A DNA stretch of 64,000 nucleotides, from NCBI GenBank assembly GCA_028718805.1, contig JAQUKY010000001.1, positions 80,384 through 144,383 on the forward strand, written 5' to 3'. A program made the position numbers and the translations under genes. Below the pieces are notes generated by a model. That model did no database searches. It was given only the letters and a program-made list of their open reading frames with translations, and was not told the origin of the DNA. How positions within the stretch are numbered: position 1 is the first letter of the stretch; each line of letters starts with the position of its first letter. Origin of the DNA: Candidatus Nanoarchaeia archaeon (GTDB lineage Archaea; Nanobdellota; Nanobdellia; Pacearchaeales; GW2011-AR1). Below, piece after piece: positions 15,544 to 33,750 of the stretch.

Positions 15544-16818
15544 ATGGTAAAAATCGGCATAATTGGGGGAAGCGGGTTGGATGACCCTAAATTATTGCAG
15601 GATTATTCTGAAAAAGAAATAGACACTAAATACGGAAAACCAAGTTCCAAGATAACCCATGGAAAACTTTCCGGAGCAGAGGTATATATTATTGCAAGAC
15701 ATGGGAAAACCCATAATATCCCCCCTGCTGCTGTAAATTACAGGGCTAATATTGCTGCATTGAAGTTATTAGGATGCGATTATATTATTACAACAAGTGC
15801 AGTAGGCTCATTAAAAGAAGACATTGAACCAGGAGATCTGGTTTTTCCTGATCAGTTTATTGATTTTACCAAGAAAAGGATAAATAGTTTTTATGAAGAA
15901 ATTGGAGAAGTAAATCATACCGGGATGGCAGAACCTTTTTCTGAGTTTTTGAGAGAAAGATTAATAGAAGCAACAGAAGAATTTGGTTTTAATTACCATA
16001 AAAAAGCAACAATTGTTGTGGTTGAGGGTCCGAGATTTTCTACAGAAGCAGAAAGCCATATGTTTAGGCAGTTTGGAGCAGATATTATTGGAATGACCAG
16101 TGTTCCTGAATGCACTTTGGCTAAAGAGGCAGGAATTCCTTATCAGACAATTGCTATGACTACCGATTATGATTGCTGGAGAGAAAACACTAAGTCTGTT
16201 ACATTTGAAATGGTTTTAACCAGAATGAAAGAAAATGCAGAAAAAGTAAAAAAGGTTTTGATGAGGGCAATTGAAAAAATAGCTGATTCAGACATAGATT
16301 TTATTAAAAGCAAGATAAGGACAGTCCCTGATTTTCCTAAGCCTGGAATAATGTTTAGGGATATTACAACTTTAGTAAGAGATCCAGAAGGATTTAGTAG
16401 AACAATGAAAGTTTTTGAAAATAGGTATAAAAATAAGGAAATTGATTTAATTGCGGGTATTGAATCAAGAGGATTTGTATTTGCTTCTGCTCTGGCAGCA
16501 AAATTAAATAAAGGAGTTGTTCTTTTAAGAAAACCTGGAAAGCTGCCATATAAAACAGTAGCACAGGAATATGACACAGAATACAGCAGAGACAGGATTG
16601 AAGTGCATGAAGATGCGATTGCAAAAGGGATGAATGTTTTGTTAATTGATGATTTGATTGCCACTGGTGGAAGTGCCTGGGCTGCCTGCAACTTAATTGA
16701 GAAGCTTGGGGGGAAGATTGTTGAATGCAGTTTTGTTGTTGAATTACCTGAATTAAAAGGCAGAGATAAACTGAAAAAATGGAATGTTTATTCTATTGTA
16801 AATTTTGAGGGAGGTTAA
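15544..16818 (+). CDS. Fusion: 5'-methylthioadenosine/purine nucleoside phosphorylase (N) plus adenine phosphoribosyltransferase (C)
   Basis: N half: IGIIGGSGL, ARHGKTHNIPP, VVEGPRFST, GMTSVPE. C half: PDFPKPGIMFRDIT and PRPP loop VLLIDDLIATGGS. Confidence 0.9.
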   Translation: MVKIGIIGGSGLDDPKLLQDYSEKEIDTKYGKPSSKITHGKLSGAEVYIIARHGKTHNIPPAAVNYRANIAALKLLGCDYIITTSAVGSLKEDIEPGDLVFPDQFIDFTKKRINSFYEEIGEVNHTGMAEPFSEFLRERLIEATEEFGFNYHKKATIVVVEGPRFSTEAESHMFRQFGADIIGMTSVPECTLAKEAGIPYQTIAMTTDYDCWRENTKSVTFEMVLTRMKENAEKVKKVLMRAIEKIADSDIDFIKSKIRTVPDFPKPGIMFRDITTLVRDPEGFSRTMKVFENRYKNKEIDLIAGIESRGFVFASALAAKLNKGVVLLRKPGKLPYKTVAQEYDTEYSRDRIEVHEDAIAKGMNVLLIDDLIATGGSAWAACNLIEKLGGKIVECSFVVELPELKGRDKLKKWNVYSIVNFEGG

Positions 16819-17088: not shown

Positions 17089-17769
17089 TTAGATTATATC
17101 GATTATTTTTCCTATTTTAATCTTGCTTTTTAATGAATATAACTGCGGAGGCCTGTAAGAAACCTCTTTTTCTTTTTCCTCTGTTGGTTCGAGTAATTCT
17201 AAAGAAAGTATTTTTTTTCTGAAATTTCTTTTGTCAAAATTTTTTTCAAATATTATTTCATATATTTTCTGCAGTTGCGTTAGTGTAAACCTTTTTGGGA
17301 GAAAAGAGAAAGCGATTGTTGTGTATTCAAATTTCCATTTCAATCTTTTTATTGCGTATTTTAAAATTTCACTATGATCAAATGCAAGAGGAGGGAGATT
17401 TGATATTTCAAACCATTCTGCTTCTATAACATCTGTTGATGCATTTAATTTCTCTTTAGCTTTTTCAGAGTTTATTAAAGCAAAGTAAGTTACAGTAATT
17501 ACTCTTCCTCTTGGGTCTCTGCTGACATCCCCAAAAGTATAAAGTTGTTCTAAATACACTTCTTTAACTCCTGTTTCTTCTTCTAGCTCTCTTTTTGCTG
17601 CTTGTTCTAAATTTTCATGTATTTTTACAAATCCACCTGGAAAAGCCCATTTGTTTTTGAATGGTTCAACTCCTCTTTTTACAAGCAAAACTTTTAGATT
17701 ATTGTCTTTGATTGTAAAAATAACTATGTCAACTGTTACAGAAGGTCTTGGATAATCTGATAATTTCAT
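17089..17769 (-). CDS. nrtR: NrtR-like regulator: Nudix domain plus C-terminal winged-helix
   Basis: Intact Nudix box GGFVKIHENLEQAAKRELEEETGV. C-terminal FTLTQLQKIYEIIFEKNFDKRNFRKKI matches the NrtR wHTH signature as I recall it. Last gene of the NAD cluster. Confidence 0.75.
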   Translation of the reverse strand: MKLSDYPRPSVTVDIVIFTIKDNNLKVLLVKRGVEPFKNKWAFPGGFVKIHENLEQAAKRELEEETGVKEVYLEQLYTFGDVSRDPRGRVITVTYFALINSEKAKEKLNASTDVIEAEWFEISNLPPLAFDHSEILKYAIKRLKWKFEYTTIAFSFLPKRFTLTQLQKIYEIIFEKNFDKRNFRKKILSLELLEPTEEKEKEVSYRPPQLYSLKSKIKIGKIIDII

Positions 17770-18341
17770 TTGTATAGCCCCTTTTTTTGGATATATTCTT
17801 CAACTTTAAAGGGAACCATATCTTTTAAAGATTTTCCTTGCCTTATTCTTTCTCTTATTTCTGTTGAAGACTCATTATGTGTTTTAATATCTAATGCTGC
17901 CTTTATCCTCATATCTGGAATTTGCTTAATTGAATAGCCCTTTCTACTGAAAATAATAAATTCTGTTTCTTTTAATAGTTCATTTAACCCGTACCAGCTG
18001 TTATTTTCCATTTCATACAAAACGTCTGCTCCTATTACCCAATAAAACTCATGAGGATGTTTTTTCTTTAATTTTTTGATTGTTCTTATTGTATAGTTTG
18101 TTTCATTAGATTCAATTTCGGTTCTGTTTATTTTGACTTTTGGGTTATCAAATGCAAGCTGTATCATATTTATCCTGTCTTTAGCAGGAGCAAGATTCTT
18201 ATTGTACGGATGATTTTTAGAAGGGATAATCCACACTTCCTCTGCCACATGTTCTTCTAATACTGTATTTGCCATTTTTACATGATGATTATGAATAGGA
18301 TTGAAACTTCCCCCGAATAAGGCTATTTTTTTATCTGTCAT
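17766..18341 (-). CDS. nadD: Nicotinate/nicotinamide mononucleotide adenylyltransferase (NadD type)
   Basis: GGSFNPIHNHH ((H/T)xxH motif) and SSTEIRERI (ISSTxxR motif). Confidence 0.85.
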   Translation of the reverse strand: MTDKKIALFGGSFNPIHNHHVKMANTVLEEHVAEEVWIIPSKNHPYNKNLAPAKDRINMIQLAFDNPKVKINRTEIESNETNYTIRTIKKLKKKHPHEFYWVIGADVLYEMENNSWYGLNELLKETEFIIFSRKGYSIKQIPDMRIKAALDIKTHNESSTEIRERIRQGKSLKDMVPFKVEEYIQKKGLYK

Positions 18342-19119
18342 TTTCTGTTTGTATAACCCTTAATGGATATTCGCTTAATCTTATTTCAAGTATGGAATCT
18401 CTTGGAAAGTCATATTCTATTGTATCAAGTGCAAACTTTCCTTCATGCCCTTTAGATTCTATTCTAAAATATTCTCCTTCTCCACTTTTAATCGGACGAG
18501 CTGTTGTGAACTTAAATATTTTCGAGTTTCTTGGATAAGGAGTAAAATCAGAATGCCAGCCTGTTGAACCAGTTCCAGTAACTATGACTAACCCAGAATT
18601 TTCATGATATTCTATTTTTTCGTCGTACATTATATTATAGCGGGCCATTTTTGTGAATTTCATGCCTTCTCCCCCAACAGCTGTTTCGTTTAATGCTCTG
18701 CCAATAAATTTTCCATCGTGATAAACATCTTGCCTTGTCCATTCTTCAATTTTATAATTGCTATTAAGAAAATTTTTAAGAGCGTTTTCTGTATCTTTCT
18801 GGCAAAGAGCCCCAACGCTTTTTGAATCTGTTTTGAGATTTAACTGGGGGATATTTTTATTGAAGGCGGCGGTCGCAATAACCGTACCATCTCCTCCAGC
18901 CGAGATAACTGCATCATATTCGTTAACGAGTTCTTCTGATAATTCTCTTCGTGTAATTGTCCTATACTCACCTCCTGCTTTTTTGATTAATTCTTCTGTT
19001 TTCTCTACGCTTTGATTGTGATTTTCATGGCTTTCTATAATTTGCCTGCTTTTATGATTGCCATTATAATAGAATTCTAATGCTGACATTTTTCTTACTA
19101 TTAGTATTTTAGGTTTCAT
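18331..19119 (-). CDS. nadK: NAD kinase
   Basis: GGDGT motif (ISAGGDGTVIA), LNETAV, and glycine-rich VTGTGSTGW. Confidence 0.8.
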   Translation of the reverse strand: MKPKILIVRKMSALEFYYNGNHKSRQIIESHENHNQSVEKTEELIKKAGGEYRTITRRELSEELVNEYDAVISAGGDGTVIATAAFNKNIPQLNLKTDSKSVGALCQKDTENALKNFLNSNYKIEEWTRQDVYHDGKFIGRALNETAVGGEGMKFTKMARYNIMYDEKIEYHENSGLVIVTGTGSTGWHSDFTPYPRNSKIFKFTTARPIKSGEGEYFRIESKGHEGKFALDTIEYDFPRDSILEIRLSEYPLRVIQTENDR

Positions 19120-19145: not shown

Positions 19146-19164
19146 TAGTGTATATTTTACACTA
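19146..19164 (-). promoter_or_regulatory. Predicted NrtR-type operator fused to the TATA box (nadK-nadD-nrtR promoter)
   Basis: Minus strand reads ATTTAAATAGTGTAAAATATACACTAAG. It has perfect 7-bp arms TAGTGTA/TACACTA with a 5-nt spacer, immediately 3' of TTTAAATA. Confidence 0.6.
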
Positions 19165-19219
19165 TTTAAATCTTTGTATACTGCAGTACATACTTTTAAT
19201 TTTTTATCTGCAATAATTT

Positions 19220-20239
19220 TTACCTTCTGAGATTGTACATTTTTCTTCCAAGGGCTTTAATTTTTTCAGAATTTTTTAGCTCATTTACCCATTTATCTGG
19301 GAATATCATGCCGTTCTTTGCCCCGGCTAATGCTCCATACATTGCTCCTGTTGTGTCGCAATCTCCCCCAAAATTTACTGTTTCAATTAAACCTTCTATT
19401 GGTTTATCCCAGTATTTTTGGAACATGAAGATTGTGAAAGGATAAGCTTCAAAAACCAGGGAAGAGCATCCAAGAATCGCATATGCTTTTATATCTGGAG
19501 CATCTTGATTTTCTTTGACCCATTTCAATTTTGAGGAAAGATTGCCTCTTTCAGGTAAAGCGTCATACTCCTGCTGCCTTTCATTTTTTGTGCAGGTATT
19601 TACTATTGAATCTAAAAATTCTTGCTTTGCTGGCTCGTTTAATAATTGAGATATAGCATGGGCTTGCACAACTCCAGATGCAATTGACCTTTCATCTAAA
19701 TGAGTTGCTCTTGAAATTAATCTTGACATCTTAATTCCTTCTTCGTATTTCCCTGTTGCATGCATATATAATCCTACAGGCGCCATTTTCATGCAGGGGC
19801 CAGTTCCAGGGCCAGGAGAAATTCCCAATTTTATTTTTTCAAATGCCTCTCTTGTTGATTTCCCAAATCCCCCTCTGATCTTTCCATCTGGTTTCCTGAG
19901 AGAATCATAAACTTCCACTTGTTTTTTACAGATATCTGTTAAATCTAATATTTTTTTATCTGCAATTGACTCTGCTATTGCTAAAGTTAGTATAGTGTCA
20001 TCAGTATAATCCCCTTTTGATAGGTCTCTTCCCCAATATTTTAGCCTGCCAAATTCATCTTCTTTTAGTAAATTTCCATTTTTATCTTTGACAAGAACGG
20101 GGTCAATAAGGTCTGTTATTCTTCCAACATATTTCTTAATTTGTCCCTTTTTCCATGCTTCTATAGGCATTCCAAGAGCATCTCCGATACCACAGCCGAT
20201 TAAAGTTGCGATATATTTTTCTTCAATATTTGTTTTCAT
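19220..20239 (-). CDS. ADP-ribosylglycohydrolase (ARH/DraG family)
   Basis: GCGIGDALGMPIE, GDYTDDT and GGDCDTTGAMYGALAGA (binuclear-metal ligand contexts). Confidence 0.85.
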   Translation of the reverse strand: MKTNIEEKYIATLIGCGIGDALGMPIEAWKKGQIKKYVGRITDLIDPVLVKDKNGNLLKEDEFGRLKYWGRDLSKGDYTDDTILTLAIAESIADKKILDLTDICKKQVEVYDSLRKPDGKIRGGFGKSTREAFEKIKLGISPGPGTGPCMKMAPVGLYMHATGKYEEGIKMSRLISRATHLDERSIASGVVQAHAISQLLNEPAKQEFLDSIVNTCTKNERQQEYDALPERGNLSSKLKWVKENQDAPDIKAYAILGCSSLVFEAYPFTIFMFQKYWDKPIEGLIETVNFGGDCDTTGAMYGALAGAKNGMIFPDKWVNELKNSEKIKALGRKMYNLRR

Positions 20240-22764
20240 TTTCGTTGTTTTACAATCTCTGGCTTACTGCCTTTTTTTACTATCGTTAATCCTAAAAACT
20301 TTTTATCTTCTTCTGGGAAATCTTCTCTGAAATGACAGGCTCTGCTTTCCTCTCTTTTTAATGCACTTTCTAAAATTATACTTGCAACGTCTGCGATATT
20401 TCTAACTTCTAAAAAATCTTTTGCTAAGAAATAATCCCAATAAAACACATCGATTCCTTTTTGAAGTGCATTTAATTTTTGTATTGCAATCTCTAGTCTT
20501 TTCTTGTCTCTTGAAATTCCGCAAAGGTCAGTCATTACTCTTCTTATTGATTCCCAGTATTCTTCTATTAACTCCTGATGTTTTATCTTGGTTGCTTTTC
20601 CAACGTCCCATAATGGTATTTCTATATCTTTATTATCATGCTTCTTTGATAAAAAATGTTTTGCAGCAAGTCTCCCAAATAATATGCATTCTGGACCAGA
20701 ATTGCTTGCAAGACGTGTTGCCCCATGTAGTCCAGTGTATGATGTTTCCCCGAGTACATAACAGTTTTTTATGCTGGTTTCTGAATTTGAATCAACTAAC
20801 ACTCCTCCGTTTGAGTAATGAACTGCATAAACAATTGGGATAGGATCTTTTTTCATATCAAATCCCTTTTTAAGGCAGAAATCATAGGAATTCTTAAAAT
20901 CTTTTGTGAGCCTGCTTTCAGGGATTTTAGTGCAGTCTAACCATAAATGAGTTAAATTATTTTTTTTCATTTCCAGGTCTTCTGCCCGGCTTACAACATC
21001 ACGTGTTGCCTTTGAGCCAAGAGGATGGTACTTTAAAATGCAATCTTCTTTAGAATCTTTATAAGTCTTGATTATTGCTCCTGCTCCGCGCAGAGCTTCT
21101 GTTAATAAGAATCTTCTTTCGTTTTCATGTCTTGCCTTTAGGTCATAGAAAACACTTGGGTGAAATTGTATAAATTCCATATTTGCCAGAGGCAACCCTG
21201 CTCTGTAACACATTGCAAACCCGTCTCCTGTGGCAATATCTTTGTTGCTTGTGTATGAGAAAACTTTTCCAAGTCCTCCTGTGGCAACAAATGTTGCTTT
21301 GCAAGAAACAGTCTTGACATAATTCTTTTTTATATCATAGACATAAAATCCCAGGCATATATTTTTACCTTTTCTTCTTAATTTTTTGCTGGTTATTAAA
21401 TCAATAACAATGTGGTCTTCATGCAAAGTTATGTTTGGGTGAGTTCTTACTTTTTCACTGAGAATTTTCATTATAGTAATTCCTGTTGTGTCTTTTGCAT
21501 GAAATACTCTATTTCTGCTGTGCCCTCCTTCTATATGCAGATCATAAACATATCCTTTTTTTGATTTATCAAAATCAACTCCCTTTTGAACTAACCATTC
21601 TATAACATCTGGAAAAAAATGCTTTGAACAATATTCTACAATTTTCTTGTCATTTAGATATTTTCCTGCCATGAGCGTGTCTTTTACATGTTTTTCAAAT
21701 GAGTCTCCTTTTAACGGCTTGTTGTTAATTATTGGAACTGCAGTTAATCCCCCTGCTGCCAGATAACTATTGCAGTCTTTGAATAAGCTTTTCTTTACAA
21801 ATAAGTCTACTTTTTTACCTGCATCAGCTAATTCTAGTGCTACTGTGCATCCTGCAAATCCTCCCCCAATTACTCCACATTCAGTTCTTATCATATTTCT
21901 GTCCATGCCTAGGTCAACTGATCTTGCAGAGTGGGTTATTTCGCCTATTGAGATTCTTTCAACTCCTGTTTTAGCAATACTTCTAACATTCTCAAGGTTT
22001 ATGCCTCCTGATGCCTCTAGCAATGGCTTTTTATTTTTATTATTCTCATTTCTCATTAAAACTGCTTTTTTTAACTGTTGAGGGCTCATGTTATCCAAAA
22101 GGATTATATCTATCCCAGGAATTTTTAAAATATTTTTAAATTGATTTAAATTATCTACTTCTATTTCTATAAATTTTATTTTTTTCATTTTTTTTGCCTT
22201 GGTTACTATTTTATTTAATTGGTCGTATGTGTTTTTTCTAAGTTGTGCTAGATGATTGTCCTTGATAAGAACTGCATCATAAAGCCCTATTCTGTGATTG
22301 TTTCCCCCTCCACATTTAACAGCATATTTTTCCAATTGTCTCCAACCCGGAGTTGTTTTTCTTGTGTCGTATATTTTTGCGCTAGTCTCTTTTACTGCAT
22401 CTACATATTTACTAGTTAATGTTGCAATTCCGCTTAGTTTTTGCATAAAATTAAGAAGAACCCTTTCAGAATTTAGAATAGAATTTAAACGTCCTTCTAT
22501 TGTTGCTATCTTTTCTCCTTTATCAACTCTTTCTCCATCTTCTGCATATATCTTGACTTTTAGGCTTGGGTCATATTCTCTTAAAATTTCTGCAATGAGA
22601 TTTGTTCCGCATACGATTATTTCCTCCCGGGAAACAATGTTTGCACTTATAACTTCGTTATTTTCATGGAAGAGACTTGTTGTTACATCTCCGTTTCCGA
22701 AATCTTCTTTAACTGCCATCTTGATTAAATGAGGCAATCCCTTGAATTTTGTTTTGTTTTTCAT
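20236..22764 (-). CDS. nadC-nadB: Fusion: quinolinate phosphoribosyltransferase (NadC, N) plus L-aspartate oxidase (NadB, C)
   Basis: N about 290 aa: DTRKTTPGWRQLEKYAVKCGGGNNHRIGLYDAVLIKDNH. C about 550 aa: FAD fold GVIGGGFAGCTVALELA, FIQFHPS, GLHGATRLASNS. Confidence 0.9.
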   Translation of the reverse strand: MKNKTKFKGLPHLIKMAVKEDFGNGDVTTSLFHENNEVISANIVSREEIIVCGTNLIAEILREYDPSLKVKIYAEDGERVDKGEKIATIEGRLNSILNSERVLLNFMQKLSGIATLTSKYVDAVKETSAKIYDTRKTTPGWRQLEKYAVKCGGGNNHRIGLYDAVLIKDNHLAQLRKNTYDQLNKIVTKAKKMKKIKFIEIEVDNLNQFKNILKIPGIDIILLDNMSPQQLKKAVLMRNENNKNKKPLLEASGGINLENVRSIAKTGVERISIGEITHSARSVDLGMDRNMIRTECGVIGGGFAGCTVALELADAGKKVDLFVKKSLFKDCNSYLAAGGLTAVPIINNKPLKGDSFEKHVKDTLMAGKYLNDKKIVEYCSKHFFPDVIEWLVQKGVDFDKSKKGYVYDLHIEGGHSRNRVFHAKDTTGITIMKILSEKVRTHPNITLHEDHIVIDLITSKKLRRKGKNICLGFYVYDIKKNYVKTVSCKATFVATGGLGKVFSYTSNKDIATGDGFAMCYRAGLPLANMEFIQFHPSVFYDLKARHENERRFLLTEALRGAGAIIKTYKDSKEDCILKYHPLGSKATRDVVSRAEDLEMKKNNLTHLWLDCTKIPESRLTKDFKNSYDFCLKKGFDMKKDPIPIVYAVHYSNGGVLVDSNSETSIKNCYVLGETSYTGLHGATRLASNSGPECILFGRLAAKHFLSKKHDNKDIEIPLWDVGKATKIKHQELIEEYWESIRRVMTDLCGISRDKKRLEIAIQKLNALQKGIDVFYWDYFLAKDFLEVRNIADVASIILESALKREESRACHFREDFPEEDKKFLGLTIVKKGSKPEIVKQRK

Positions 22765-22766
22765 TT

Positions 22767-23675
22767 TTAACCTACACTTATCATCTTATTTAATGCTTTG
22801 CTGGCTTTAATCCTTATGTTTTCTGGAACATTTATCTCATACTGGTTTTTTTCAAGTGCTTCATAAACCTTTTTTAGAGTAGTTTTTTTCATGTTAGGGC
22901 ATGTTCCTCCAATTGAATAATACTTGTTCTCTGGGTTTTCTTTGATTAATCTATTAATCATATCTATTTCTGTTGCTAAAATTATTTGTTTGTTTTTATT
23001 TTCCTTTGCAAATTTAACCATTTTTTCTGTTGAGCAGATTTCATCTGCGTATTTTAAGACTTCTGCAGGACATTCAGGGTGCATTATAAGCTTTGCTTTT
23101 GGGTTTTGTTCTTTTGCAAGCTTTGCTTTTTCAGGAGAAATATTCTGATGGACATGACAGTAGCCCTGCCAGGGGATTATTTTCTTGTTTGTTTTTGTCT
23201 GAACATATGCACCAAGATTTTTATCAGGAATAAACAAAATTTCATTTTCCTTCATACTGTTTACAAGTTCAACTGCATTTCCAGAAGTACAACATGCATC
23301 TGATTCTGCTTTTATATTTGCATTTGTGTTTACATATGCAACGACTGCTGCTCCTGGATGCTGTTTTTTGAATTCTTTTAACTGTTTTACTGTTATCATT
23401 TCTGCCATAGGGCATCCTGCGTCAATTGCAGGGAGCAAGACTATTTTTTTTGGATTAAGTATTTTTGCAGTTTCTGCCATGAATTTGACTCCGCAGAAAA
23501 CTATTATGTCCTTGTCTGTTTCTGCAGCTTTTTTGCTTAATCCAAGAGAGTCTCCTATATAATCTGCAACTTCATATATTTCTGGTCTTTGATAGTTATG
23601 AACCAGTATGACTGCGTTTTTCTTTTTCTTTAATTCTTCAATTTTCCTGATTAGATTTTTTTCTTTATTTTCCAT
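22767..23675 (-). CDS. nadA: Quinolinate synthase
   Basis: About 300 aa with LVHNYQ, FCGVKFMAETAKIL and MHPECP contexts typical of NadA. Confidence 0.9.
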   Translation of the reverse strand: MENKEKNLIRKIEELKKKKNAVILVHNYQRPEIYEVADYIGDSLGLSKKAAETDKDIIVFCGVKFMAETAKILNPKKIVLLPAIDAGCPMAEMITVKQLKEFKKQHPGAAVVAYVNTNANIKAESDACCTSGNAVELVNSMKENEILFIPDKNLGAYVQTKTNKKIIPWQGYCHVHQNISPEKAKLAKEQNPKAKLIMHPECPAEVLKYADEICSTEKMVKFAKENKNKQIILATEIDMINRLIKENPENKYYSIGGTCPNMKKTTLKKVYEALEKNQYEINVPENIRIKASKALNKMISVG

Positions 23676-24111
23676 TTTTCTGCCTCCATATCTTATACTT
23701 TTCGATAATTTTTTTATGACTGAAAGCCATGTCAGGCAAGTTATCTAAGGGGAATTTTTTAACATCTGCTGCATCATCCCCTGGCTTTGTAACTCCGGTA
23801 TATTTTGTTGTAACATAGATTAAAGAGACTATATGCCCTCTTTCATTTTTGAGGGGATTATCTTTATGAGGATTTGATGTTTCGTGAAACAGCTCTAAAT
23901 CCTCTGTTTCTACATCTAAGCCTGTTTCTTCCTTAGCTTCTCTCCTGGCAGTTTGCCTCACGTTCTCTTCATCAACATTCAGAAACCCTCCCGGGAGTGC
24001 CCACAGACCTTTGTAAGGATTAAATTTTCTCTGAATCAAATATATCTCCCCATTATCTTCTATTATCAGGTCTGCAGTTACACTTGGTTTCTTAAAATTT
24101 TCTTGTTGCAT
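23665..24111 (-). CDS. Nudix hydrolase
   Basis: Nudix box GGFLNVDEENVRQTARREAKEETGL. Confidence 0.85.
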   Translation of the reverse strand: MQQENFKKPSVTADLIIEDNGEIYLIQRKFNPYKGLWALPGGFLNVDEENVRQTARREAKEETGLDVETEDLELFHETSNPHKDNPLKNERGHIVSLIYVTTKYTGVTKPGDDAADVKKFPLDNLPDMAFSHKKIIEKYKIWRQKNGK

Positions 24112-24112
24112 T

Positions 24113-24874
24113 TTAACTCTTAATAGCCTCCATAATTTTATTCTTAAATTTTATATCTACATCATAGGATATAAATCTATTTTCTGCTGTTTTATTAAAC
24201 TTTACGAAATCTTCTCCTAAAGCAGCAGATACTGCCAGAGCATCGTACATTGGAAATTCAGTTCTTCCTGTATAATCTGCCCATCTTTTTGTGGATTCAT
24301 ATAAAAAGTTTCCTAATTCAGTTTTTTTAAGAGCTTCTAGTTCATTTAGTGTGAAACAAACTTTTTTTGAGACTTCATTAGTTATCTGGAAAATTTTCCA
24401 GGGCTGAGAGAATACTTTTTGTGCAGCTTCGTTATCTGTTATCATATTGTGAGTGCCTTCAGAACCCATTATATAAACTTCTTTAACATTTTTTATACTT
24501 GGATTGTTTTCAAGCTGAAAAGCAATGTTTGTTAAAAGACCTATGCAAATAAGCTTTGTATCTTTATCATATTCTGGAAACTTATTATTTTCTAAATTTT
24601 CATTAAGCTCCTGCTGAGTTAAAGCTAATGGCTCTATTCCTGTCCAGTATTTTTTTATCATATCTTTGCTTCCAGATTTGCCCGCGGTTATTGGAATGTT
24701 AATTCCCAAAATCCTCTCGAGCTTTCTTGCTATCTTCGCCCTTATTATTGTGTCTCCCTGAGTAATTGTTATTGCCTTTATGTCTGCATTATTTTTTATA
24801 GCATAAGCCAGTGCAAACGCATCATCGGGGTCTGTTCCGATGTCTGTATCAATTACGAAATTTGTTTTTGTCAT
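24113..24874 (-). CDS. Nucleoside hydrolase (IU-NH family, short form)
   Basis: N-terminal aspartate cluster IDTDIGTDPDDAFALAYA. It is 253 aa, shorter than the roughly 310 aa of typical Rih enzymes. Confidence 0.7.
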   Translation of the reverse strand: MTKTNFVIDTDIGTDPDDAFALAYAIKNNADIKAITITQGDTIIRAKIARKLERILGINIPITAGKSGSKDMIKKYWTGIEPLALTQQELNENLENNKFPEYDKDTKLICIGLLTNIAFQLENNPSIKNVKEVYIMGSEGTHNMITDNEAAQKVFSQPWKIFQITNEVSKKVCFTLNELEALKKTELGNFLYESTKRWADYTGRTEFPMYDALAVSAALGEDFVKFNKTAENRFISYDVDIKFKNKIMEAIKS

Positions 24875-25902
24875 TTTTTATTTTCAAATAATTTATCTAC
24901 GAGTTTCTTTGCTCTATTGAATCTTTCATCATAATTCCCGTTTATCTCAATAAATGAAACTTTTCTATCCCTGAACATTTTTTTTAATTTATCATTGTTG
25001 ATTTTTCTTGTTTCCTGCTCTCCTGCAAATCTTAGGCCATCTTCAACCCATTTTACATCAGGTTCCAGATATAAGACCAGGTCATAATCCTGTAATTTTA
25101 CTATTTCCTCTATTAATTTAGATTTTTCTTTTGGGCAGTACATGTCCAAATAGTACTGGGTTGTTATTGCTTCGCTGTCAATAAACAAAACTTTATTGCT
25201 CTGCTCTGCCCTTTTCTGCTGCAATAAAAAATGTTCCATTGCTATATGATTAAACATTTCCTTGGTTAACTGATTGGAATATTTCTTACTGTAATCTCTC
25301 CCCACTTCTTCCACATAATTTGTGTTGTAAAACTTTGCCAGTTTCTTTGTAAGGATTGTTTTTCCGCAGCTTTCTGTTCCAACTACTGCAACTTTTTTTG
25401 TGAAATAAGATCTTACACAGTTTGGAAGCTTATCCCAGTTTTCATAAAGATTTTTTCTCATTTCAGTAGCTGAAATTCTTACAGTGTTTCTTTTGTCATC
25501 TATTACAATGTGTTTTGAATCTGGGTAAAATTTTTTAAAAAGTTTACTATACTCATGTTCTGAACTAAACACATAATCAATAGGTTTGCCAATTGCTTTC
25601 TTTATTAAATTTGCCCCAGTTTCCCAGTCGTAATTATTTTCCCACCGATCATCTTCGATATGTATCAGTTTTATGTTCTCAAGATTATTTAATGATTCTC
25701 CAATCCAGGATAATCTGACTTCTGCAGGAATATACTTTATTCCATCTCTCTCGCAGATTTCTCTGTCTCTGTTTTTAGATGAAGTAACAACTACATAAAG
25801 TTCATCTACTTGGTTTGAAGCAGCAATTATTGCATACACATGCCCTAAATGAAAGGGCAGGAATTTCCCTCCTATGAAACCAACTGTCTTTTTATTTTCC
25901 AT
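24871..25902 (-). CDS. nadR: NadR-like bifunctional NMN adenylyltransferase / ribosylnicotinamide kinase (no HTH)
   Basis: GGKFLPFHLGHVYAI (HxGH) in the N half; P-loop VVGTESCGKTILTKKLA in the C half. Confidence 0.85.
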   Translation of the reverse strand: MENKKTVGFIGGKFLPFHLGHVYAIIAASNQVDELYVVVTSSKNRDREICERDGIKYIPAEVRLSWIGESLNNLENIKLIHIEDDRWENNYDWETGANLIKKAIGKPIDYVFSSEHEYSKLFKKFYPDSKHIVIDDKRNTVRISATEMRKNLYENWDKLPNCVRSYFTKKVAVVGTESCGKTILTKKLAKFYNTNYVEEVGRDYSKKYSNQLTKEMFNHIAMEHFLLQQKRAEQSNKVLFIDSEAITTQYYLDMYCPKEKSKLIEEIVKLQDYDLVLYLEPDVKWVEDGLRFAGEQETRKINNDKLKKMFRDRKVSFIEINGNYDERFNRAKKLVDKLFENKK

Positions 25903-26476
25903 TTTGAGTTTTATATGATCTATACCATTTAATTAATCCGGATGTTGCCAGGACCAGGAACACAGCATAAAGTCCTGTTGTCATGTACAATCCTTTGTAA
26001 GAGTATATGAATAGCGCCATTACATCTACTGAAATCCATAAAACCCAATTTTCAAGGATTTTTCTTCCCATTAACCATTGAGCAGTAAGGCTCATTACAG
26101 TTGTTAATGAATCCCAATAAGGAAGTGAAGCCCCGGTATAATTAGCCATAACATATCCAAGCAGCATTGTTACAACTATAATCTCAAGTGACCAGAATAT
26201 TATTCCCATTATTTTTAATCTTTTAACAGGAACACTATCTTTCTTTTTTTTATTACCATAAACCCAATAATACCATCCATAAATCTGCATGAAAATGTAT
26301 ATAAAATTTTCAAGAGTATCTGAATATAGCTTAACATTTAAGAATATGATTACGTAGAGAATTGTCATTGCAATTCCTGTTGGCCAGCACCATATATTCT
26401 GCTTTGTTGTGAAATAAACACTTAATACCCCAAGTATGACTGCTGCAAGCTCCAAAATAGTCATTAATTCTAGCAT
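25892..26476 (-). CDS. pnuC: Nicotinamide riboside transporter PnuC
   Basis: Multi-TM protein with the signature KQNIWCWPTGI and Trp-rich helices. Confidence 0.85.
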   Translation of the reverse strand: MLELMTILELAAVILGVLSVYFTTKQNIWCWPTGIAMTILYVIIFLNVKLYSDTLENFIYIFMQIYGWYYWVYGNKKKKDSVPVKRLKIMGIIFWSLEIIVVTMLLGYVMANYTGASLPYWDSLTTVMSLTAQWLMGRKILENWVLWISVDVMALFIYSYKGLYMTTGLYAVFLVLATSGLIKWYRSYKTQNGK

Positions 26477-27333
26477 CTTTTATTCCTCCAAGATTTATAT
26501 CTCTCCATTACCAAGTTATGGTCAAAGGCAAGTCTTGGGGTTTCTTCAAGAGTAGCCCAGTATAGTTCAGAAGCATCATCTCCTGCTTTTGGGATTCCTT
26601 TATAATTTTTTACAATAAAAATGTGGTCAATTACATGAGTTCTTGGATCTCTATCCGGAGATGAGTTAACCATCAGTAATTCTAAATCTTCTGGGTTAGT
26701 TTTGAGGTTTGTTTCTTCATCTAATTCTCTTACTGCAGTCTTTTCCAATGATTCTTTCATGTAATCAAGGAATCCTCCCGGTAGAGCTAACATTCCTTTG
26801 TAGGGTTCATGCTTCCTTTTAACATAGCAGATTTTCCCGTTTCTTTCAACAATCATTGATGCTGTTGAAGCTGGATTTTTAAATTCCATTTTACTCCATT
26901 GTTTTACTTGTTTAGCTAAATCGTTTATAGAATAGACAATTTTTATCTCAGGTCTGATTAATGCTGTTTGTATTTCAACATCTATTTTTCTTTTGTATTC
27001 TGGATGAACCCCTATGAAAACGGGTTTATCAGAGTTACTTTGTTTTCCAAGTTCATAGAGAGTTATTGGGCAAAGAGTTTCTTTTGGGAACCAGAATGAA
27101 ACTGCATCTGCCTTCCTGAGATGATTGTATTCCCATATTATCTGTTCTTTGTCTATGCCAGGCTTATCTGGAAATATTTTTCTTCTTGGATTTAATATCA
27201 CAATTTTTTCATCTTCTAGTAACTTTACTAATTCTGACTGCCAGTTTTGGCATCCTGTTATGCCTCCGGCTATGAACAAGGATTTTTCATCTTGTTTTCT
27301 TTCATATTCTTCAGGCGCTTCTGTGTATTTCAT
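26470..27333 (-). CDS. Fusion: nucleoside 2-deoxyribosyltransferase-like domain (N) plus Nudix hydrolase (C)
   Basis: N half: LFIAGGITGCQNW...ADAVSFWF...ITLYELG (NDT/SLOG-like, Glu in YELG). C half: Nudix box LPGGFLDYMKESLEKTAVRELDEETNL. Confidence 0.65.
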   Translation of the reverse strand: MKYTEAPEEYERKQDEKSLFIAGGITGCQNWQSELVKLLEDEKIVILNPRRKIFPDKPGIDKEQIIWEYNHLRKADAVSFWFPKETLCPITLYELGKQSNSDKPVFIGVHPEYKRKIDVEIQTALIRPEIKIVYSINDLAKQVKQWSKMEFKNPASTASMIVERNGKICYVKRKHEPYKGMLALPGGFLDYMKESLEKTAVRELDEETNLKTNPEDLELLMVNSSPDRDPRTHVIDHIFIVKNYKGIPKAGDDASELYWATLEETPRLAFDHNLVMERYKSWRNKRC

Positions 27334-27334
27334 T

Positions 27335-28252
27335 TTATCTGTACTCCAAATTTATTTTAGCTATTGGGGGATGTAAAATTTCAGATTTCTTCTGAGCAAT
27401 TTTATTTCTCCTTAAAATGTCATATACAATTTTTTCAGTTGTGTTGAATTTTCTATTTCCATAAATTTTTTCATACTTTTGCATATCTTTTTCAGTATAT
27501 TCTTTAACTTGAGTATTTTCTATAAGGTTTTCAAGAGAGAATCCTTGTGTAAGACCCTCTGTTACTAATTCTACGGTTTCATACTCATAACCCAAGTCTT
27601 TGAAATCTGTTTGATTTGGTTCTATTCCTGCTGTTGGTGTTTTTTTTGCTATTTCGGGAAATCCGAGATATTCTGCCATCTGTTTCACTAATCTTTTTGA
27701 GAGATTTCCAATAGGAGAAAGATGAACAGCACCATCTCCGAATAAAGTATAATATCCTACACCAAAGTCTTCATCTTTATTTCCGGTTCCTAGCACTAAT
27801 TTTTGTTCTATGGCTGCTTTTGTTGATAAAATATTAGCCCTTATTCTTGCTATCAAGTTACCTTTGTCATATTCTTTGCCTACCTCAAAAATTCTTGGGT
27901 CAACAGTATAAAATCCTTCAATCGCTTTGTTTATGTCTATGACTTCATAGTCTATTGCAAGTTTTTTTGCAACATATGTCCCATCTATTGTATCTTTTTG
28001 CTCATTTAGTTTTGTTGGAAGCATATACCCAATTAATCCTAGTTTTCTGTCTTTCCTTCTATTGTTTTCATTATAATTATCAAATGCTTTTTTTGCTAAT
28101 GCTGCTGTTACTGTTGAATCTACTCCTCCGGATAATCCTATTACTCCCCCGGTATAGCCTATGCTGGTTATTTCATCTAAAATGAAATCTCCGATTTCAT
28201 CTGCTGCCTTTTCTGGATTCATGTATGGAAGTTTTATTTTTTCGTTTTTCAT
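27335..28252 (-). CDS. nadE: NH3-dependent NAD+ synthetase
   Basis: PP-loop GLSGGVDSTV, GNLIARIRANIL, GTGNKDEDFGVGYYTLFGDG. The start is set at MKNEKI, whose ATG overlaps the upstream TGA (ATGA). Confidence 0.85.
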   Translation of the reverse strand: MKNEKIKLPYMNPEKAADEIGDFILDEITSIGYTGGVIGLSGGVDSTVTAALAKKAFDNYNENNRRKDRKLGLIGYMLPTKLNEQKDTIDGTYVAKKLAIDYEVIDINKAIEGFYTVDPRIFEVGKEYDKGNLIARIRANILSTKAAIEQKLVLGTGNKDEDFGVGYYTLFGDGAVHLSPIGNLSKRLVKQMAEYLGFPEIAKKTPTAGIEPNQTDFKDLGYEYETVELVTEGLTQGFSLENLIENTQVKEYTEKDMQKYEKIYGNRKFNTTEKIVYDILRRNKIAQKKSEILHPPIAKINLEYR

Positions 28253-29184
28253 ATTTTTTCCTCCTCTAAAAAATAAGGTGTCAGGCAAAGCCTGCAGAAC
28301 TTATCCCTCATGAATTGTTCTATGTGTTTATCTGTGTTTGCAAGCAAAATAACATCGCTTGCTTTCAGATTTAGATTATGTTTTTTATTCAATTCTTTGA
28401 TTATTTTATCCTGGAGCGGCTTATATTTATTGTAAAGCTGTTGTGGTCTTATTTCATCCAAAATTCTGTCTGCTACAACCAGAGAGAATATATTCTTAAA
28501 CCATATATTCGCTTCAAGTGTTTCTATTGGCTCTCTGCTAAAAGTGAAACCTATCCTATAATAATACAAACCAAAAGGTTTGCTCATTGAAGTTACCACT
28601 GCGATTATGTTCTGATTGCTTAAATCGAATTTGTTATCTCTTGTTAAACCAGCATAACTAGTATCATAAACAACTTTGTGATATTTGCAGATCTCATTTA
28701 TAAATTCATTTTTGATTATGTTTCCATTTCTTGAAGAAGGGTTTGAGATGAAGAAGATTCCTGGATTTAATTTTGAAAACTCTTCATTTTCGTTAACTTC
28801 AATTATCTTTATTCCCATTTCCTTGGCATACTCTTTGTATCCTTCATATTCTCCCTTTAAAGTATAAATGGGTGCTTCAGGATTTTTTGTTTTTAGCTTA
28901 ACAAGCAAATGAAAAATACCTTCACTTGCTCCTGCTGTAAAATATCTATACTTAAAATCTTTTAAAGAGGGTAATTGTTTTTCATTATATCTTATAAACT
29001 TTCCAATTACTGGAAAGTGAAAGTCATCTAAGCCAGGAGTTATTGAACTAAGGAAGACTTTATGAGGATAGTTTTTAACAACTTCGTCTATAACTTTTCT
29101 TATTTCTGGGAAATAATAGCAATAGACTGTTCTTGTAGCTTTTAGCTTTTCTATTTCAATATTTTTTTGTTTTTGAATTTCCAT
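28249..29184 (-). CDS. PLP-dependent aminotransferase-fold protein (class I/II-like), function unknown
   Basis: TSMSKPFGL (Schiff-base Lys context), DTSYAGL and FISNPSSRNGN (degenerate NPxNPTG) in the expected order. Short (311 aa). Confidence 0.5.
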   Translation of the reverse strand: MEIQKQKNIEIEKLKATRTVYCYYFPEIRKVIDEVVKNYPHKVFLSSITPGLDDFHFPVIGKFIRYNEKQLPSLKDFKYRYFTAGASEGIFHLLVKLKTKNPEAPIYTLKGEYEGYKEYAKEMGIKIIEVNENEEFSKLNPGIFFISNPSSRNGNIIKNEFINEICKYHKVVYDTSYAGLTRDNKFDLSNQNIIAVVTSMSKPFGLYYYRIGFTFSREPIETLEANIWFKNIFSLVVADRILDEIRPQQLYNKYKPLQDKIIKELNKKHNLNLKASDVILLANTDKHIEQFMRDKFCRLCLTPYFLEEEKI

Positions 29185-29185
29185 T

Positions 29186-30046
29186 TTAAATTAAAATTGC
29201 CCCCTTATACTGCCAGTCATATCTTAGATGACCATCTGGAAAAAATATTATCTGCCTTAGGTTATCTGAATCTGGCTCTATTGTTAATGCATCTGTAATG
29301 CATATATTCTGCCCGTGAACATCGTAGACTTTTGCTCCATCATGAAAAGTCATAAGTTTGTTTCCATTTCTAATTACAAAGTTTCTTATTTTTGTCATTT
29401 CTGATTCTTTGATGAGATTTTCTGCAGTCCATGCAGCAATTTCATTATCTTCAGAATGTTTTGGCATTGCGAGTTTTCTTATGCTTAGATGCTCTAATTT
29501 CCATTCTTTAGCTTTTTCAATAAGATTCTTTACTTCTTCTGGATTGTCAATAAATCCTTTTAGCATAGTGCAGCTTATTCTTACTGAAAATCCAATAATA
29601 TGCAGTTTTTTAATTAAATTTTCAAGTTCAGGATATTCCTCTGAGAATATTTCCTTGTTTCTTTCTTGTTTATAATGAACTGCAGACAGAGCTATCATTG
29701 TTAATCCTAGAGTATACCATCTTTTCAGATGTTTGTTATAGCTTTCTTGGGTAAGTAAAATCCCATTTGTCTGTAATTCAATTAGTGGAAAATTGAATCT
29801 TTTTAAATTTTCCAGGAATTTTGTTATTTGCTTTGGATAAAGAGTTGGCTCTCCTTTTCCTGTTATCAAAACAGTCGTAATTCCTTTTATTTCTGCTAAC
29901 CTGCATGCTTTTTCAAAATTCCTCCAGTTAACTCTTGGTTCTTCTAAGCTAATCCCTTGTTTAGGAGTCATTTTTGATATGCAATAAGGGCAGTGCGCAT
30001 TGCATGCTGTTGTTCCTGCGACTATGCTAAATGTTTGTATTTTCAT
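29186..30046 (-). CDS. Radical SAM enzyme, function unknown
   Basis: CNAHCPYC (CxxxCxxC) at residues about 15-22, GKGEPTLYP (GGE-like) and ELQTNGILL. Confidence 0.8.
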   Translation of the reverse strand: MKIQTFSIVAGTTACNAHCPYCISKMTPKQGISLEEPRVNWRNFEKACRLAEIKGITTVLITGKGEPTLYPKQITKFLENLKRFNFPLIELQTNGILLTQESYNKHLKRWYTLGLTMIALSAVHYKQERNKEIFSEEYPELENLIKKLHIIGFSVRISCTMLKGFIDNPEEVKNLIEKAKEWKLEHLSIRKLAMPKHSEDNEIAAWTAENLIKESEMTKIRNFVIRNGNKLMTFHDGAKVYDVHGQNICITDALTIEPDSDNLRQIIFFPDGHLRYDWQYKGAILI

Positions 30047-30513
30047 ATTTTGCCTCCTGGTTTATAACCGCTTATCATCAAGAAACCGTTTCCGGCTAAT
30101 TTTAGTGTTTCCTGCTCTTTTAATCCCAGAGTTTTTCCGCTCATTATCTCCCAAAGTCCAAGAGCCTTTCCTAAAGCCATTGTTCTTAATGCTTCTTCTT
30201 GTTCTACTTCTAAATTAGGGGCTAGTTCAATATAACTTGGCCCCCCAGCAAGCCTGTCTTTTTGGGGGTAATCTTCTAATAGAGTTTCTAATTCTTTTTT
30301 TCTTGCCTTTGCTTTTTCTTTGTCAACTAAGACATCTACAAAGATCATATCTATTTTTTCATATTTTTCATTATTCGGAGCTTCTGAAGTATGAGGATAG
30401 CCAAATATCTCCACAACATGTAGATTCCCAGTATTTCTTTCCTCAATTACCCCTCCTTTTCTGTAAACTCTCGTAGTTTCCTGCAGTATGTCATAAAGTT
30501 TCTCAGTGTTCAT
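30043..30513 (-). CDS. Hypothetical protein (156 aa)
   Basis: Overlaps both neighbours by 4 and 11 nt; no motif recognised. Confidence 0.5.
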   Translation of the reverse strand: MNTEKLYDILQETTRVYRKGGVIEERNTGNLHVVEIFGYPHTSEAPNNEKYEKIDMIFVDVLVDKEKAKARKKELETLLEDYPQKDRLAGGPSYIELAPNLEVEQEEALRTMALGKALGLWEIMSGKTLGLKEQETLKLAGNGFLMISGYKPGGKI

Positions 30514-30781
30514 TTTTTTTACCTCCGTAGCTAAAAATAAGCCTGTTACATCGGTCTGTTTGGGATCCTGTGAAGTGATAAACTTTCCAGTGAGGGCTGT
30601 ATATCTGAATTAGTTTGTCAATAGCTTCTCTTGAAGTATTGTCTAGAAGATCAAATGCAACTTCTCGTGTTCCATTAAAAGTTGCTTCAAGAAACTTATC
30701 AATTTCTATTTCTAGGCTTTTGACAGTTTCATTGTCATTTCTTATTTTTCTTTCAATTAATGGTTCTGGTATGATTACCAT
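30503..30781 (-). CDS. Hypothetical small protein (92 aa), paralog of 31133..31390
   Basis: Shares MVI(I/T)P start, LExxIDxxLE, IYxxxWxV and QxxxxxxLxF with the 85-aa ORF. Confidence 0.45.
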   Translation of the reverse strand: MVIIPEPLIERKIRNDNETVKSLEIEIDKFLEATFNGTREVAFDLLDNTSREAIDKLIQIYSPHWKVYHFTGSQTDRCNRLIFSYGGKKNEH

Positions 30782-31131
30782 CTTCCGGCTCCTTCCCCAA
30801 AATCTGGGATTTTTGTTATACTATCTTTAGCTCGAGTTGTGATTTGTTCAAGCCCGCATCTAGTGCAGGTTCTTTTCCATCTTGGTTCTGTTTTTGCTGA
30901 AACATAAGTTGGTCCTCTCCAGTCAACACCCATTGTTCCTGGTTTATCTCCAGGAATAGTATATGCTGATGTGTAAATTGGGTCATAAATTGTCTTGCTA
31001 TATTCATGCTGACATCTTCTTTCGTAATCTCTAAGTTCGTTTCTAGCTCTGTCAGATTTTTCATTAGCTTTATTAACTTCTTCATTGGTTCTTTTTACTA
31101 TTTCACGTAATTCTCTTGCTCTGTTTTCCAT
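30775..31131 (-). CDS. Hypothetical protein (118 aa; N-terminal coiled coil, Cys/His cluster)
   Basis: RRCQHE ... CTRCG. Translationally coupled to both neighbours. Confidence 0.45.
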   Translation of the reverse strand: MENRARELREIVKRTNEEVNKANEKSDRARNELRDYERRCQHEYSKTIYDPIYTSAYTIPGDKPGTMGVDWRGPTYVSAKTEPRWKRTCTRCGLEQITTRAKDSITKIPDFGEGAGRW

Positions 31132-31132
31132 T

Positions 31133-31390
31133 TTATTCTCTGCCTCCGGTTTTCATTTCTTTAAAACTTAGATAGTTTCCTTCTCTTTGGTCTGATTCAT
31201 AACTGACCTCCCAGCCAGCTTTTTCATATATATGAGTTATTTCTTGAACTACTTTTTCTCCAGGATATTCATTTATATCGAAAGTATTTTCCCCTTCCAA
31301 TAATGCCTGGTCAATTCTCTTCTCCAGACCTTTAAGCAGGGCTTTATCTGCTTTTGTCAGAGCTTTTGCTTCTTGAGGTGTGATTACCAT
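31133..31390 (-). CDS. Hypothetical small protein (85 aa), paralog of 30503..30781
   Basis: The start is trimmed to MVITPQ (ATG 1 nt after the pncA TAA). The longer track ORF would overlap pncA by 83 nt. Confidence 0.45.
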   Translation of the reverse strand: MVITPQEAKALTKADKALLKGLEKRIDQALLEGENTFDINEYPGEKVVQEITHIYEKAGWEVSYESDQREGNYLSFKEMKTGGRE

Positions 31391-31391
31391 T

Positions 31392-32129
31392 TTACAATTT
31401 TCCCTCCAAAACCTGTTTAGTTGTAATGAGTTTGGCACCAGCTTTTGACATTTCTTCAAGTGCTTTATTTCCAAATTCAGGATCTACTTTTCCTTCAAAA
31501 TTTATATTAACAGCTTCTATTGCATCAGTTACCACATAAATCTCCAATGGTTTTTGATATTTGTCTCTAATTTCCGCCATTTTCAGAACTGCTGCTTTAT
31601 CACAATAGTCTGTTGCAAAACCATTTACAATGACTCTTTGTAGGCCTTTGTCAAGCAATTTTTTAAATGCTGGCTCAAAATTAGGATTTGTCCCAACATT
31701 ATAGTTCTGCTTTTCAAAAATTAAGTGCATCTTATTTTTTTCTGCAGCTTCTGTATACTTCTCTAGTTCATTGTTAGTATAAATCTTAATTCCCAGTTCA
31801 GGCCCATCCTTTGCTCTTATATAAATGTCTTTTTGAGGTTCTAGTTCTTTTAGCCTTAACTGACCCCAGGTTCCATTCATGCAATGATCATCAAATACCC
31901 CTCCCTGGTTTCTTATTAATTCTGCATCTTCGTAAAAATGCCTGTCTACTGACCCGAGAAACAGATAGTTGTTATCAATTGCATTTTTATGTATTGCAAA
32001 TATATTCGGGAGTCTTTCTTCTGCACCATAAGGCAATGCTGTTTTTGGCTTGTTAGCTCTTACAAACAATGCTCCTTCTCTTACACTAAAGTCGTACTGA
32101 ACATCTGTTTCATAAATTGCAGTTTTCAT
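31392..32129 (-). CDS. pncA: Isochorismatase-family nicotinamidase
   Basis: N-terminal Asp (ETDVQYDF), metal-site context SVDRHF...DDHC, and nucleophile Cys in GFATDYCDKAAV. Confidence 0.7.
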   Translation of the reverse strand: MKTAIYETDVQYDFSVREGALFVRANKPKTALPYGAEERLPNIFAIHKNAIDNNYLFLGSVDRHFYEDAELIRNQGGVFDDHCMNGTWGQLRLKELEPQKDIYIRAKDGPELGIKIYTNNELEKYTEAAEKNKMHLIFEKQNYNVGTNPNFEPAFKKLLDKGLQRVIVNGFATDYCDKAAVLKMAEIRDKYQKPLEIYVVTDAIEAVNINFEGKVDPEFGNKALEEMSKAGAKLITTKQVLEGKL

Positions 32130-32130
32130 T

Positions 32131-33324: not shown

Positions 33325-33332
33325 TTTTATTT

Positions 33333-33746
33333 TTATTTTTTACCTCCTTCATTTACAAACATCATCTGCATTTTTCCTACTATATCCGGCGTCTCAACTT
33401 TATTTAGAAAACATCCTGTCTGATAAAATTCAATTATTTCTCCTTGAGGGTCATAAACATCGCCTTGTAAAAGCCTTCTTGCAGTTACATGCCATCCGTC
33501 AGGGTAGATATCATAAGGTCCGTGTCCTGTACCTCCTCCGCCATAATAAGTTTTTTCAACAACATACCTTGCTTTTTCTCTTTCTTGGTCTATATGCCCC
33601 CTAAATTTCATAGGGCCTGCTACATTAAAGCGTCCTTTTTGAAATAGATTAGGATTTTCTATAATTCCTTCTATTCCGACTTGTGGGATTTTTATTACAT
33701 CCCCTATCTGGACTAGTTTTTGTTTTGTTAGTGTATTATTTAACAT
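33333..33746 (-). CDS. Hypothetical protein (137 aa), first gene of the NAD operon
   Basis: Gly-rich loop YYGGGGTGHGPYDIYPDGWH; no family recognised. Confidence 0.5.
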   Translation of the reverse strand: MLNNTLTKQKLVQIGDVIKIPQVGIEGIIENPNLFQKGRFNVAGPMKFRGHIDQEREKARYVVEKTYYGGGGTGHGPYDIYPDGWHVTARRLLQGDVYDPQGEIIEFYQTGCFLNKVETPDIVGKMQMMFVNEGGKK

Positions 33747-33750
33747 AAGT

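Follow-up and report, generated by a model that had tools for sequence, protein, structure and literature searches.

The open reading frame at positions 17089–17769 of a 64,000-nt stretch of DNA (hereafter the window, meaning the whole stretch) from a Candidatus Nanoarchaeia archaeon raises the question of whether an archaeal NAD gene cluster is controlled by a regulator of the NrtR family and, if so, through which DNA sites and in response to which signal. To our knowledge, the regulation of NAD metabolism in archaea is essentially uncharted. An initial annotation, made from the letters of the window alone, had read the protein as a Nudix domain joined to an NrtR-type winged helix, and had described the family as one defined in bacteria. 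The literature that we found likewise treats NrtR as bacterial; a study of Sulfolobus Nudix proteins states this outright and found no such fusion in Sulfolobus. Full-text searches for work linking NrtR with DPANN, Nanoarchaeota, Woesearchaeota, Pacearchaeota or Asgard archaea returned none.

An NrtR-family protein closes a NAD gene cluster in a DPANN archaeon

The assembly that contains the window comprises 1.175 Mb in 18 contigs, with 31.8% G+C and 86.7% completeness. Its SSU and LSU rRNAs score best with archaeal Rfam models, genes for CDC48 and a family-B DNA polymerase lie in the window, and those close homologs that carry a name belong to Nanoarchaeota or Pacearchaeota MAGs. On these sequence features the host genome is that of an archaeon of the DPANN/Nanoarchaeota type, and the archaeal context claimed at the outset holds. 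A search for transcript data led only to three sequencing runs that contain this sequence, all of landfill metagenome DNA.

The nrtR gene (226 aa, minus strand, ATG start) is the last gene of a 21-gene, 17-kb minus-strand NAD cluster that runs from 33746 to 17089, as the initial annotation had placed it. According to Pfam and NCBIfam annotation, the cluster consists of two units. The main unit (18 genes, 19220–33746, minus strand), a predicted NrtR target, begins with a gene for a 137-aa protein without assigned function, followed by NAPRT-like and PncA-like genes, small open reading frames, a radical SAM gene and a gene for a PLP-fold protein; it continues with nadE, an NDT-Nudix fusion, pnuC, a nadR-like gene, a nucleoside hydrolase gene and a Nudix gene, and ends with nadA, a nadC-nadB fusion and a gene for an ADP-ribosylglycohydrolase (ARH). 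The nadC (quinolinate phosphoribosyltransferase) and nadB (L-aspartate oxidase) parts are fused in one 842-aa open reading frame at 20236–22764. After a 100-bp gap, the second unit (19119–17089, minus strand) comprises a nadK-like gene (18331–19119) with weak NAD kinase matches, nadD (17766–18341; TIGR00482, 172 bits) and nrtR. Stop and start codons overlap between all three genes, the ATG of nrtR overlapping the stop codon of nadD in the ATGA at 17766–17769, and we take the three to be co-transcribed. The other strand next to the cluster carries, at 15544–16818, an open reading frame of 424 aa in which methylthioadenosine phosphorylase and adenine phosphoribosyltransferase are fused.

Searches with domain models divide the protein into two parts. 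Residues 15–137 (17359–17727, minus strand) match the Nudix domain model PF00293 with 83.6 bits and presumably form the effector-binding and catalytic domain; secondary matches of this domain are to Nudix domains of the NadM-type NMNAT/ADPR pyrophosphatases (PDB 2qjt and 2qjo). Residues 153–213 (17131–17313, minus strand) match the NrtR winged-helix model PF21906 (NrtR_WHD) with 88.9 bits against a cut-off of 27, over 61 of 61 model positions. The segment FTLTQLQKIYEIIFEKNFDKRNFRKKI, proposed earlier as matching the NrtR winged helix, with a search against the NrtR C-terminal family as the check, lies inside this match. The AraR_C model scores lower on the same protein (45.6 bits). The narrow NCBIfam equivalog model NF050029 (ADPR-responsive repressor NtrR) aligns to residues 4–213 with 194.9 bits, which misses its curated cut-off of 400, and by this measure the archaeal protein is a relative within the family, not an equivalog of the proteins behind that model.

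Sequence and structure comparisons agree on the nearest known proteins. In a sequence search of the PDB, full-length matches included AraR of Bacteroides thetaiotaomicron (BtAraR; E = 5.6e-46, 160 bits) and NrtR of Shewanella oneidensis (SoNrtR; E = 1.7e-36). We modelled the protein with AlphaFold2 from an alignment of 30 homologs (mean pLDDT 86.7, pTM 0.82); the model has helices at residues 163–174 and 180–189, followed by a beta-hairpin wing at 193–213. Among PDB structures compared with this model by Foldseek, the best match was BtAraR (5bs6, TM 0.81 over 216 columns), followed by SoNrtR in its free (3gz5) and DNA-bound (3gz6) forms (TM 0.77–0.78) and then by an Enterococcus faecalis family member (2fml), a ranking that the PDB sequence search shares. 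The superposition on BtAraR and SoNrtR extends along the whole model. We conclude that the open reading frame encodes a genuine member of the NrtR family in a DPANN archaeon.

Two perfect palindromes overlap TATA-like boxes in front of the NAD units

The two operators predicted in the initial annotation proved to be perfect copies of the palindrome TAGTGTA-N5-TACACTA. The first, O1 (19146–19164, minus strand), precedes the nadK-like/nadD/nrtR unit, and the second, O2 (33751–33769, minus strand), precedes the 18-gene main unit; together they occupy the only two sizeable intergenic gaps of the NAD cluster. They are also the only two perfect copies in the 1.175-Mb genome, against 0.016 expected from base composition, and the four looser matches elsewhere in the genome (two or fewer mismatches) all lie within genes.

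Read in the direction of transcription, TTTAAA stands directly before both palindromes, and a TATA-like box, TTTAAATA, overlaps each of them by 2 bases (19163–19170 at O1 and 33768–33775 at O2, both on the minus strand); this junction of box and palindrome recurs in related loci. O1 precedes the start codon of the second unit by 24 nt and O2 that of the main unit by 4 nt. Because O2 leaves only 4 nt before the start codon, the main-unit transcript is probably leaderless. The position of O1 in front of nrtR's own unit predicts autoregulation.

Further elements surround the two operators. A weaker tandem site (TATGTTA-N5-TACACTA on the coding strand, with 3 mismatches; 33729–33747, minus strand) lies 3 bp downstream of O2, and the same tandem layout is present in three related loci (L032, L035 and L037). 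Upstream of the TATA-like boxes of O1 and O2 are imperfect TGTA-N8-TACA elements (19175–19192 and 33780–33799, respectively), whose spacer exceeds that of the main operator by 3 bp. NrtR may bind them as sites of a second class, or they may serve another factor. A similar element occurs in the orthologous promoter of L037. We set aside as a site the sequence TATTGTA-N5-TACAATA within the 5´ coding region of nrtR (L036:5616–5634 and L041:781–799; ~17709–17729 in the window), because it coincides with the codons of a conserved IVIFTI peptide; inside nrtR of congeners it is probably a by-product of coding.

The DNA-reading residues are those of a crystallised relative

In the crystal structure of BtAraR bound to DNA, residues K179, R180, N181 and K184, together with R205 of the wing, define the sequence GTGT, and the half-sites are arranged as GTGT-N7-ACAC (PMC4666351). 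The recognition helix of the archaeal protein, D179–K186 (DKRNFRKK; 17212–17235, minus strand), is identical in the alignment to D178–K184 of BtAraR. The residues equivalent to the DNA readers (K180, R181, N182, K185 and R206) are all present, and are invariant in the 30 archaeal homologs; the BtAraR wing residue K204 is replaced by Tyr. The archaeal operator, written as TA-GTGT-A-N5-T-ACAC-TA, has the same geometry as the BtAraR half-sites. It also contains the GT-N7-AC core that most NrtR motifs share, within palindromic operators of ~21 bp (Rodionov et al., 2008; PMC2330246).

The regulator, its operator and NAD genes occur together in other genomes

We gathered related loci by whole-genome HMM searches, a peptide-pattern scan of genome contigs having given few archaeal loci. 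Most of the ~30 nrtR loci examined in further genomes of the phylum have the gene beside nadE, pncA-like, nadK-like, NDT-Nudix, NAPRT-like, ARH, nadA or radical-SAM genes. In 20 other nrtR neighbourhoods of the phylum, palindrome sites with two or fewer mismatches reach a density of 90.8 per Mb, compared with 3.5 per Mb in the window's own genome outside the cluster and 2.35 sites per replicate (~6 per Mb) in shuffled controls; the motif is thus ~26-fold enriched around nrtR in these 20 genomes. At least one such site is present in 14 of the 20 loci, and the other six have none at this threshold. About half of the sites have a TATA-like hexamer in their flank, and the flanks suggest an extended consensus, cTTAGTGTA-W5-TACACTAAg. 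The motif tracks nrtR even in genomes whose Nudix box is degenerate.

Three contigs of Jordarchaeia type (Asgard) carry a NAPRT-like/nrtR pair behind an identical palindrome (L003:2707–4600, L004:2325–4188 and L005:2310–4173). Their sites match O1 of the window over 23–26 nt, and their NrtR proteins are only ~49% identical to the one described here. In one related genome of this set, the domain lies on a contig of more than 3 Mb.

Of 400 high-quality genomes from the window's phylum, 68 (17%) encode the winged-helix domain PF21906, which is represented in 58 of 280 genera. The archaeal copy is no oddity. Within the genus, the domain is confined to four of 36 congeners (G001–G036) and nadE to few of them; most members appear to lack this NAD module altogether. 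Of 301 Asgard genomes, 6 contain the domain; the control genomes include four model archaea, and it was absent from each of these. In a set of 61 relatives, seven of the 10 with nrtR have a strong nadE match, as do two of the 51 lacking it (p = 9e-6), indicating that regulator and pathway travel together as an accessory module. In a small maximum-likelihood tree with few bacteria, in which SoNrtR forms a long branch, Bacteroidota proteins of the AraR type nest among DPANN proteins (support 92/88) and those of Jordarchaeia form a separate long branch.

NrtR homologs at 40–50% identity also occur on 12 IMG/VR contigs (L064–L075) of 10–512 kb, whose GC fractions range between 0.25 and 0.67. Intact Nudix boxes occur in several of the homologs and two lie beside nadD, with otherwise little NAD context. 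The TAGTGTA motif is present on none of the 12. We rejected viral carriage as relevant to this locus, the contigs looking bacterial or phage-like and being without the motif.

An intact Nudix box and conserved ligand residues point to ADP-ribose

The Nudix signature reported earlier for GGFVKIHENLEQAAKRELEEETGV is complete: the segment contains a perfect GX5EX7REUXEEXGU box from G46 to V68. The box itself, read directly from the sequence as GFVKIHENLEQAAKRELEEETGV (17566–17634, minus strand), fits the pattern throughout, as G46-x5-E52-x7-R60-E61-L62-x-E64-E65-x-G67-V68. Residues G46, E52, R60, E61, L62, E64, E65 and T66 are invariant across the 30 archaeal homologs, which argues for selection on catalysis, and because the box is both canonical and invariant among close homologs, NrtR is probably also an ADP-ribose hydrolase. 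An intact box is not special to this copy, since Rodionov et al. (2008; PMC2330246) already marked NrtR proteins with intact boxes and proposed for them a dual role as enzyme and regulator. Other sequences from the same archaeal radiation have degenerate boxes and keep the DNA-reading helix (L051, L054, L056, L063 and those of Jordarchaeia); the radiation thus holds a mixture of intact and degenerate boxes, as is seen in bacteria. We set aside the rule that places a proline at +16 in ADP-ribose-specific Nudix enzymes: the proline here is at +18, and the rule is loose.

Marinifilum and other Bacteroidota (L008–L016) encode stand-alone Nudix hydrolases of ~145 aa that are 45–52% identical to the archaeal NrtR Nudix domain, and these may belong to the line of enzymes that gave rise to this branch of regulators. 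Longer DPANN homologs of 375–386 aa (P0058, P0060, P0071 and L051:9129–10256) have an N-terminal extension before the Nudix domain and winged helix. In three of the four, the Pfam NUDIX match is split into two stretches, suggesting a duplicated Nudix domain.

SoNrtR binds ADP-ribose through R41, N43, K76 and R98; R95 and a His residue lie at the ribose. In the alignment, R41 corresponds to R32 of the archaeal protein, R98 to R87, R95 to R84 and the ribose-contacting His to H132. The contacts of N43 and K76 are not conserved, the equivalent residues being V34 and E65, the latter a catalytic Glu of the intact box. Given the conserved ligand residues and the precedent of the family, the effector is probably ADP-ribose. 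An efficient hydrolase would destroy its own effector, which implies that catalysis is slow or else that the actual ligand is another one.

The second of these possibilities, in which NrtR represses the NAD cluster in response to an effector other than ADP-ribose, is the main competitor, and we consider it unlikely though worth weighing. Candidates are NAD, NaAD, 2´-phospho- or O-acetyl-ADP-ribose, and a pentose or pentose phosphate, as in AraR. The closest solved relative and best PDB match, BtAraR, senses arabinose, and elsewhere the NrtR family has been retargeted to pentose pathways (PMC2330246). The two SoNrtR contacts that are not conserved lean the same way, as do the Jordarchaeia proteins, which have a degenerate Nudix box and lack R32, R84 and H132, so that their ligand may differ; with the operator kept in these relatives, it appears that the ligand can change while the DNA code stays. 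The archaeal protein nevertheless has R87 at the position of SoNrtR R98, which contacts the phosphate and ribose of ADP-ribose and is Gly in the arabinose-binding AraR, and its complete Nudix box would be able to hold Mg-pyrophosphate. Sugar catabolic genes are absent nearby, and the cluster does encode ARH along with three further Nudix domains, each of them linked to ADP-ribose.

A model for NrtR action at the NAD cluster

We propose, with considerable confidence, that the archaeal NrtR is an autoregulated, probably ADP-ribose-responsive repressor of the NAD cluster that acts between the TATA box and the transcription start, and that it is probably an ADP-ribose hydrolase as well; for this protein we infer DNA binding, repression, effector and catalysis from its sequence and from its relatives. 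By homology, a NrtR dimer would bind the 19-bp palindrome with each winged helix reading one GTGT half-site. From the position of the operators, the bound dimer is expected to lie between the TATA box and the transcription start and to block recruitment of RNA polymerase, and repression would cover both the 18-gene unit for NAD synthesis and salvage and the regulator's own nadK-like/nadD/nrtR unit. ADP-ribose could arise from NAD consumption and from de-ADP-ribosylation by the cluster's own ARH enzyme. As the ligand residues and family precedent suggest, its binding to the Nudix domain would turn the winged helices and release the DNA. When the signal ceases, repression would return as NrtR and the cluster's further Nudix proteins hydrolyse the ADP-ribose.

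Archaeal promoters can be activated from upstream sites, whereas archaeal repressors classically bind just downstream of the TATA box. The idea that NrtR, bound to the palindromes, activates the NAD promoters or has a dual effect on them could draw on the extra TGTA-N8-TACA elements upstream of both TATA boxes, but is very improbable, since the strong sites directly follow the TATA box and span the region in which transcription is expected to start, and all characterised NrtR and AraR proteins are repressors. Equally far-fetched is a protein that serves mainly as an ADP-ribose pyrophosphatase of NAD recycling, with a vestigial winged helix and with palindromes that belong to another factor or are the promoters themselves: the intact, invariant Nudix box and the ~49% identity of the ~145-aa stand-alone Bacteroidota hydrolases to its Nudix domain would suit such an enzyme, but the DNA-reading residues are invariant in archaeal homologs and identical to the GTGT readers of BtAraR, the operator has exactly the GTGT half-site at the right spacing, and the motif tracks nrtR across genomes, those with degenerate boxes included.

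Discussion

The archaeal repressor that we propose combines features of several known systems. BtAraR (BT0354; PDB 5bs6, 5dd4 and 5deq) is its best match in both sequence and structure, shares the recognition helix DKRNFRK, the wing Arg and the GTGT-N7-ACAC geometry, and has tandem operators at some of its promoters, as is the case here. BtAraR is a dimeric repressor that is released by a ligand in its Nudix domain, a behaviour predicted for the archaeal protein too. The two differ at the ligand: L-arabinose is what AraR senses, and the AraR Nudix box is degenerate, whereas the archaeal box is intact. The nucleotide cleft of AraR is filled by Gly89, Phe36, Leu67 and Tyr5, and at the first three of these positions the archaeal protein has Arg87, Val34 and Glu65. 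In the alignment, the archaeal protein thus has the DNA-reading residues of the AraR subgroup and not its arabinose pocket. They differ in setting as well, AraR controlling arabinose genes from bacterial sigma-type promoters, and the archaeal copy lying in a NAD cluster with its operator fused to a TATA box.

SoNrtR (SO_1979; PDB 3gz5, 3gz6 and 3gz8) resembles the archaeal protein in its two-domain fold and in four conserved ligand contacts (R41, R95, R98 and the His); like Synechocystis NrtR, it controls genes of NAD synthesis and salvage, is autoregulated, and uses an operator with a GT-N7-AC core. Unlike the archaeal protein, SoNrtR has a degenerate box (RKLAEK) and is without hydrolase activity, its recognition helix reads QGKSFRRR, and its host is bacterial. 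A precedent for a dual role is NuhA of Synechococcus sp. PCC 7002, an NrtR-family protein with a canonical Nudix signature that is reported to be a highly active ADP-ribose pyrophosphatase (PMC2330246). We liken the archaeal protein to NuhA by description, as an intact-box member of the family, and not by sequence; NuhA is cyanobacterial, and the literature that we found reports for it neither an operator nor an archaeal promoter context.

The archaeal repressors MDR1 and Phr bind between the TATA box and the transcription start. We liken the NrtR operators to theirs in lying directly downstream of, or overlapping, the TATA box, where a bound protein would hinder recruitment of RNA polymerase; MDR1 and Phr are of unrelated families and have unrelated ligands. 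The protein is clearly a member of a family already known, here in a domain of life new to that family and with promoters arranged in the archaeal way; it is not a new kind of system.

A more far-reaching reading, which we regard as conceivable but hold quite tentatively, is that NrtR is a bifunctional ADP-ribose sensor and enzyme that ends its own signal, and that regulator, operator and NAD genes form a mobile module that has passed among DPANN archaea, Jordarchaeia and Bacteroidota and in which one DNA code has been kept. If so, destruction of the signal by the protein's own Nudix site would set the length of each burst of NAD-gene expression, and the reading of GTGT-N7-ACAC by DKRNFRK would have been kept through the moves of the module.

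For the biology of these archaea, the locus provides a predicted NAD regulon that is complete and open to testing, with its regulator, a pair of exact operators whose reading code is known from a structure, defined target units and a metabolite that could plausibly be the signal. It also illustrates the wiring of a bacterial-type repressor to an archaeal TATA promoter. As the regulator and NAD genes travel together, and do so in a minority of DPANN genomes only, they mark those reduced symbionts that are able to make NAD, or recycle it, by themselves.
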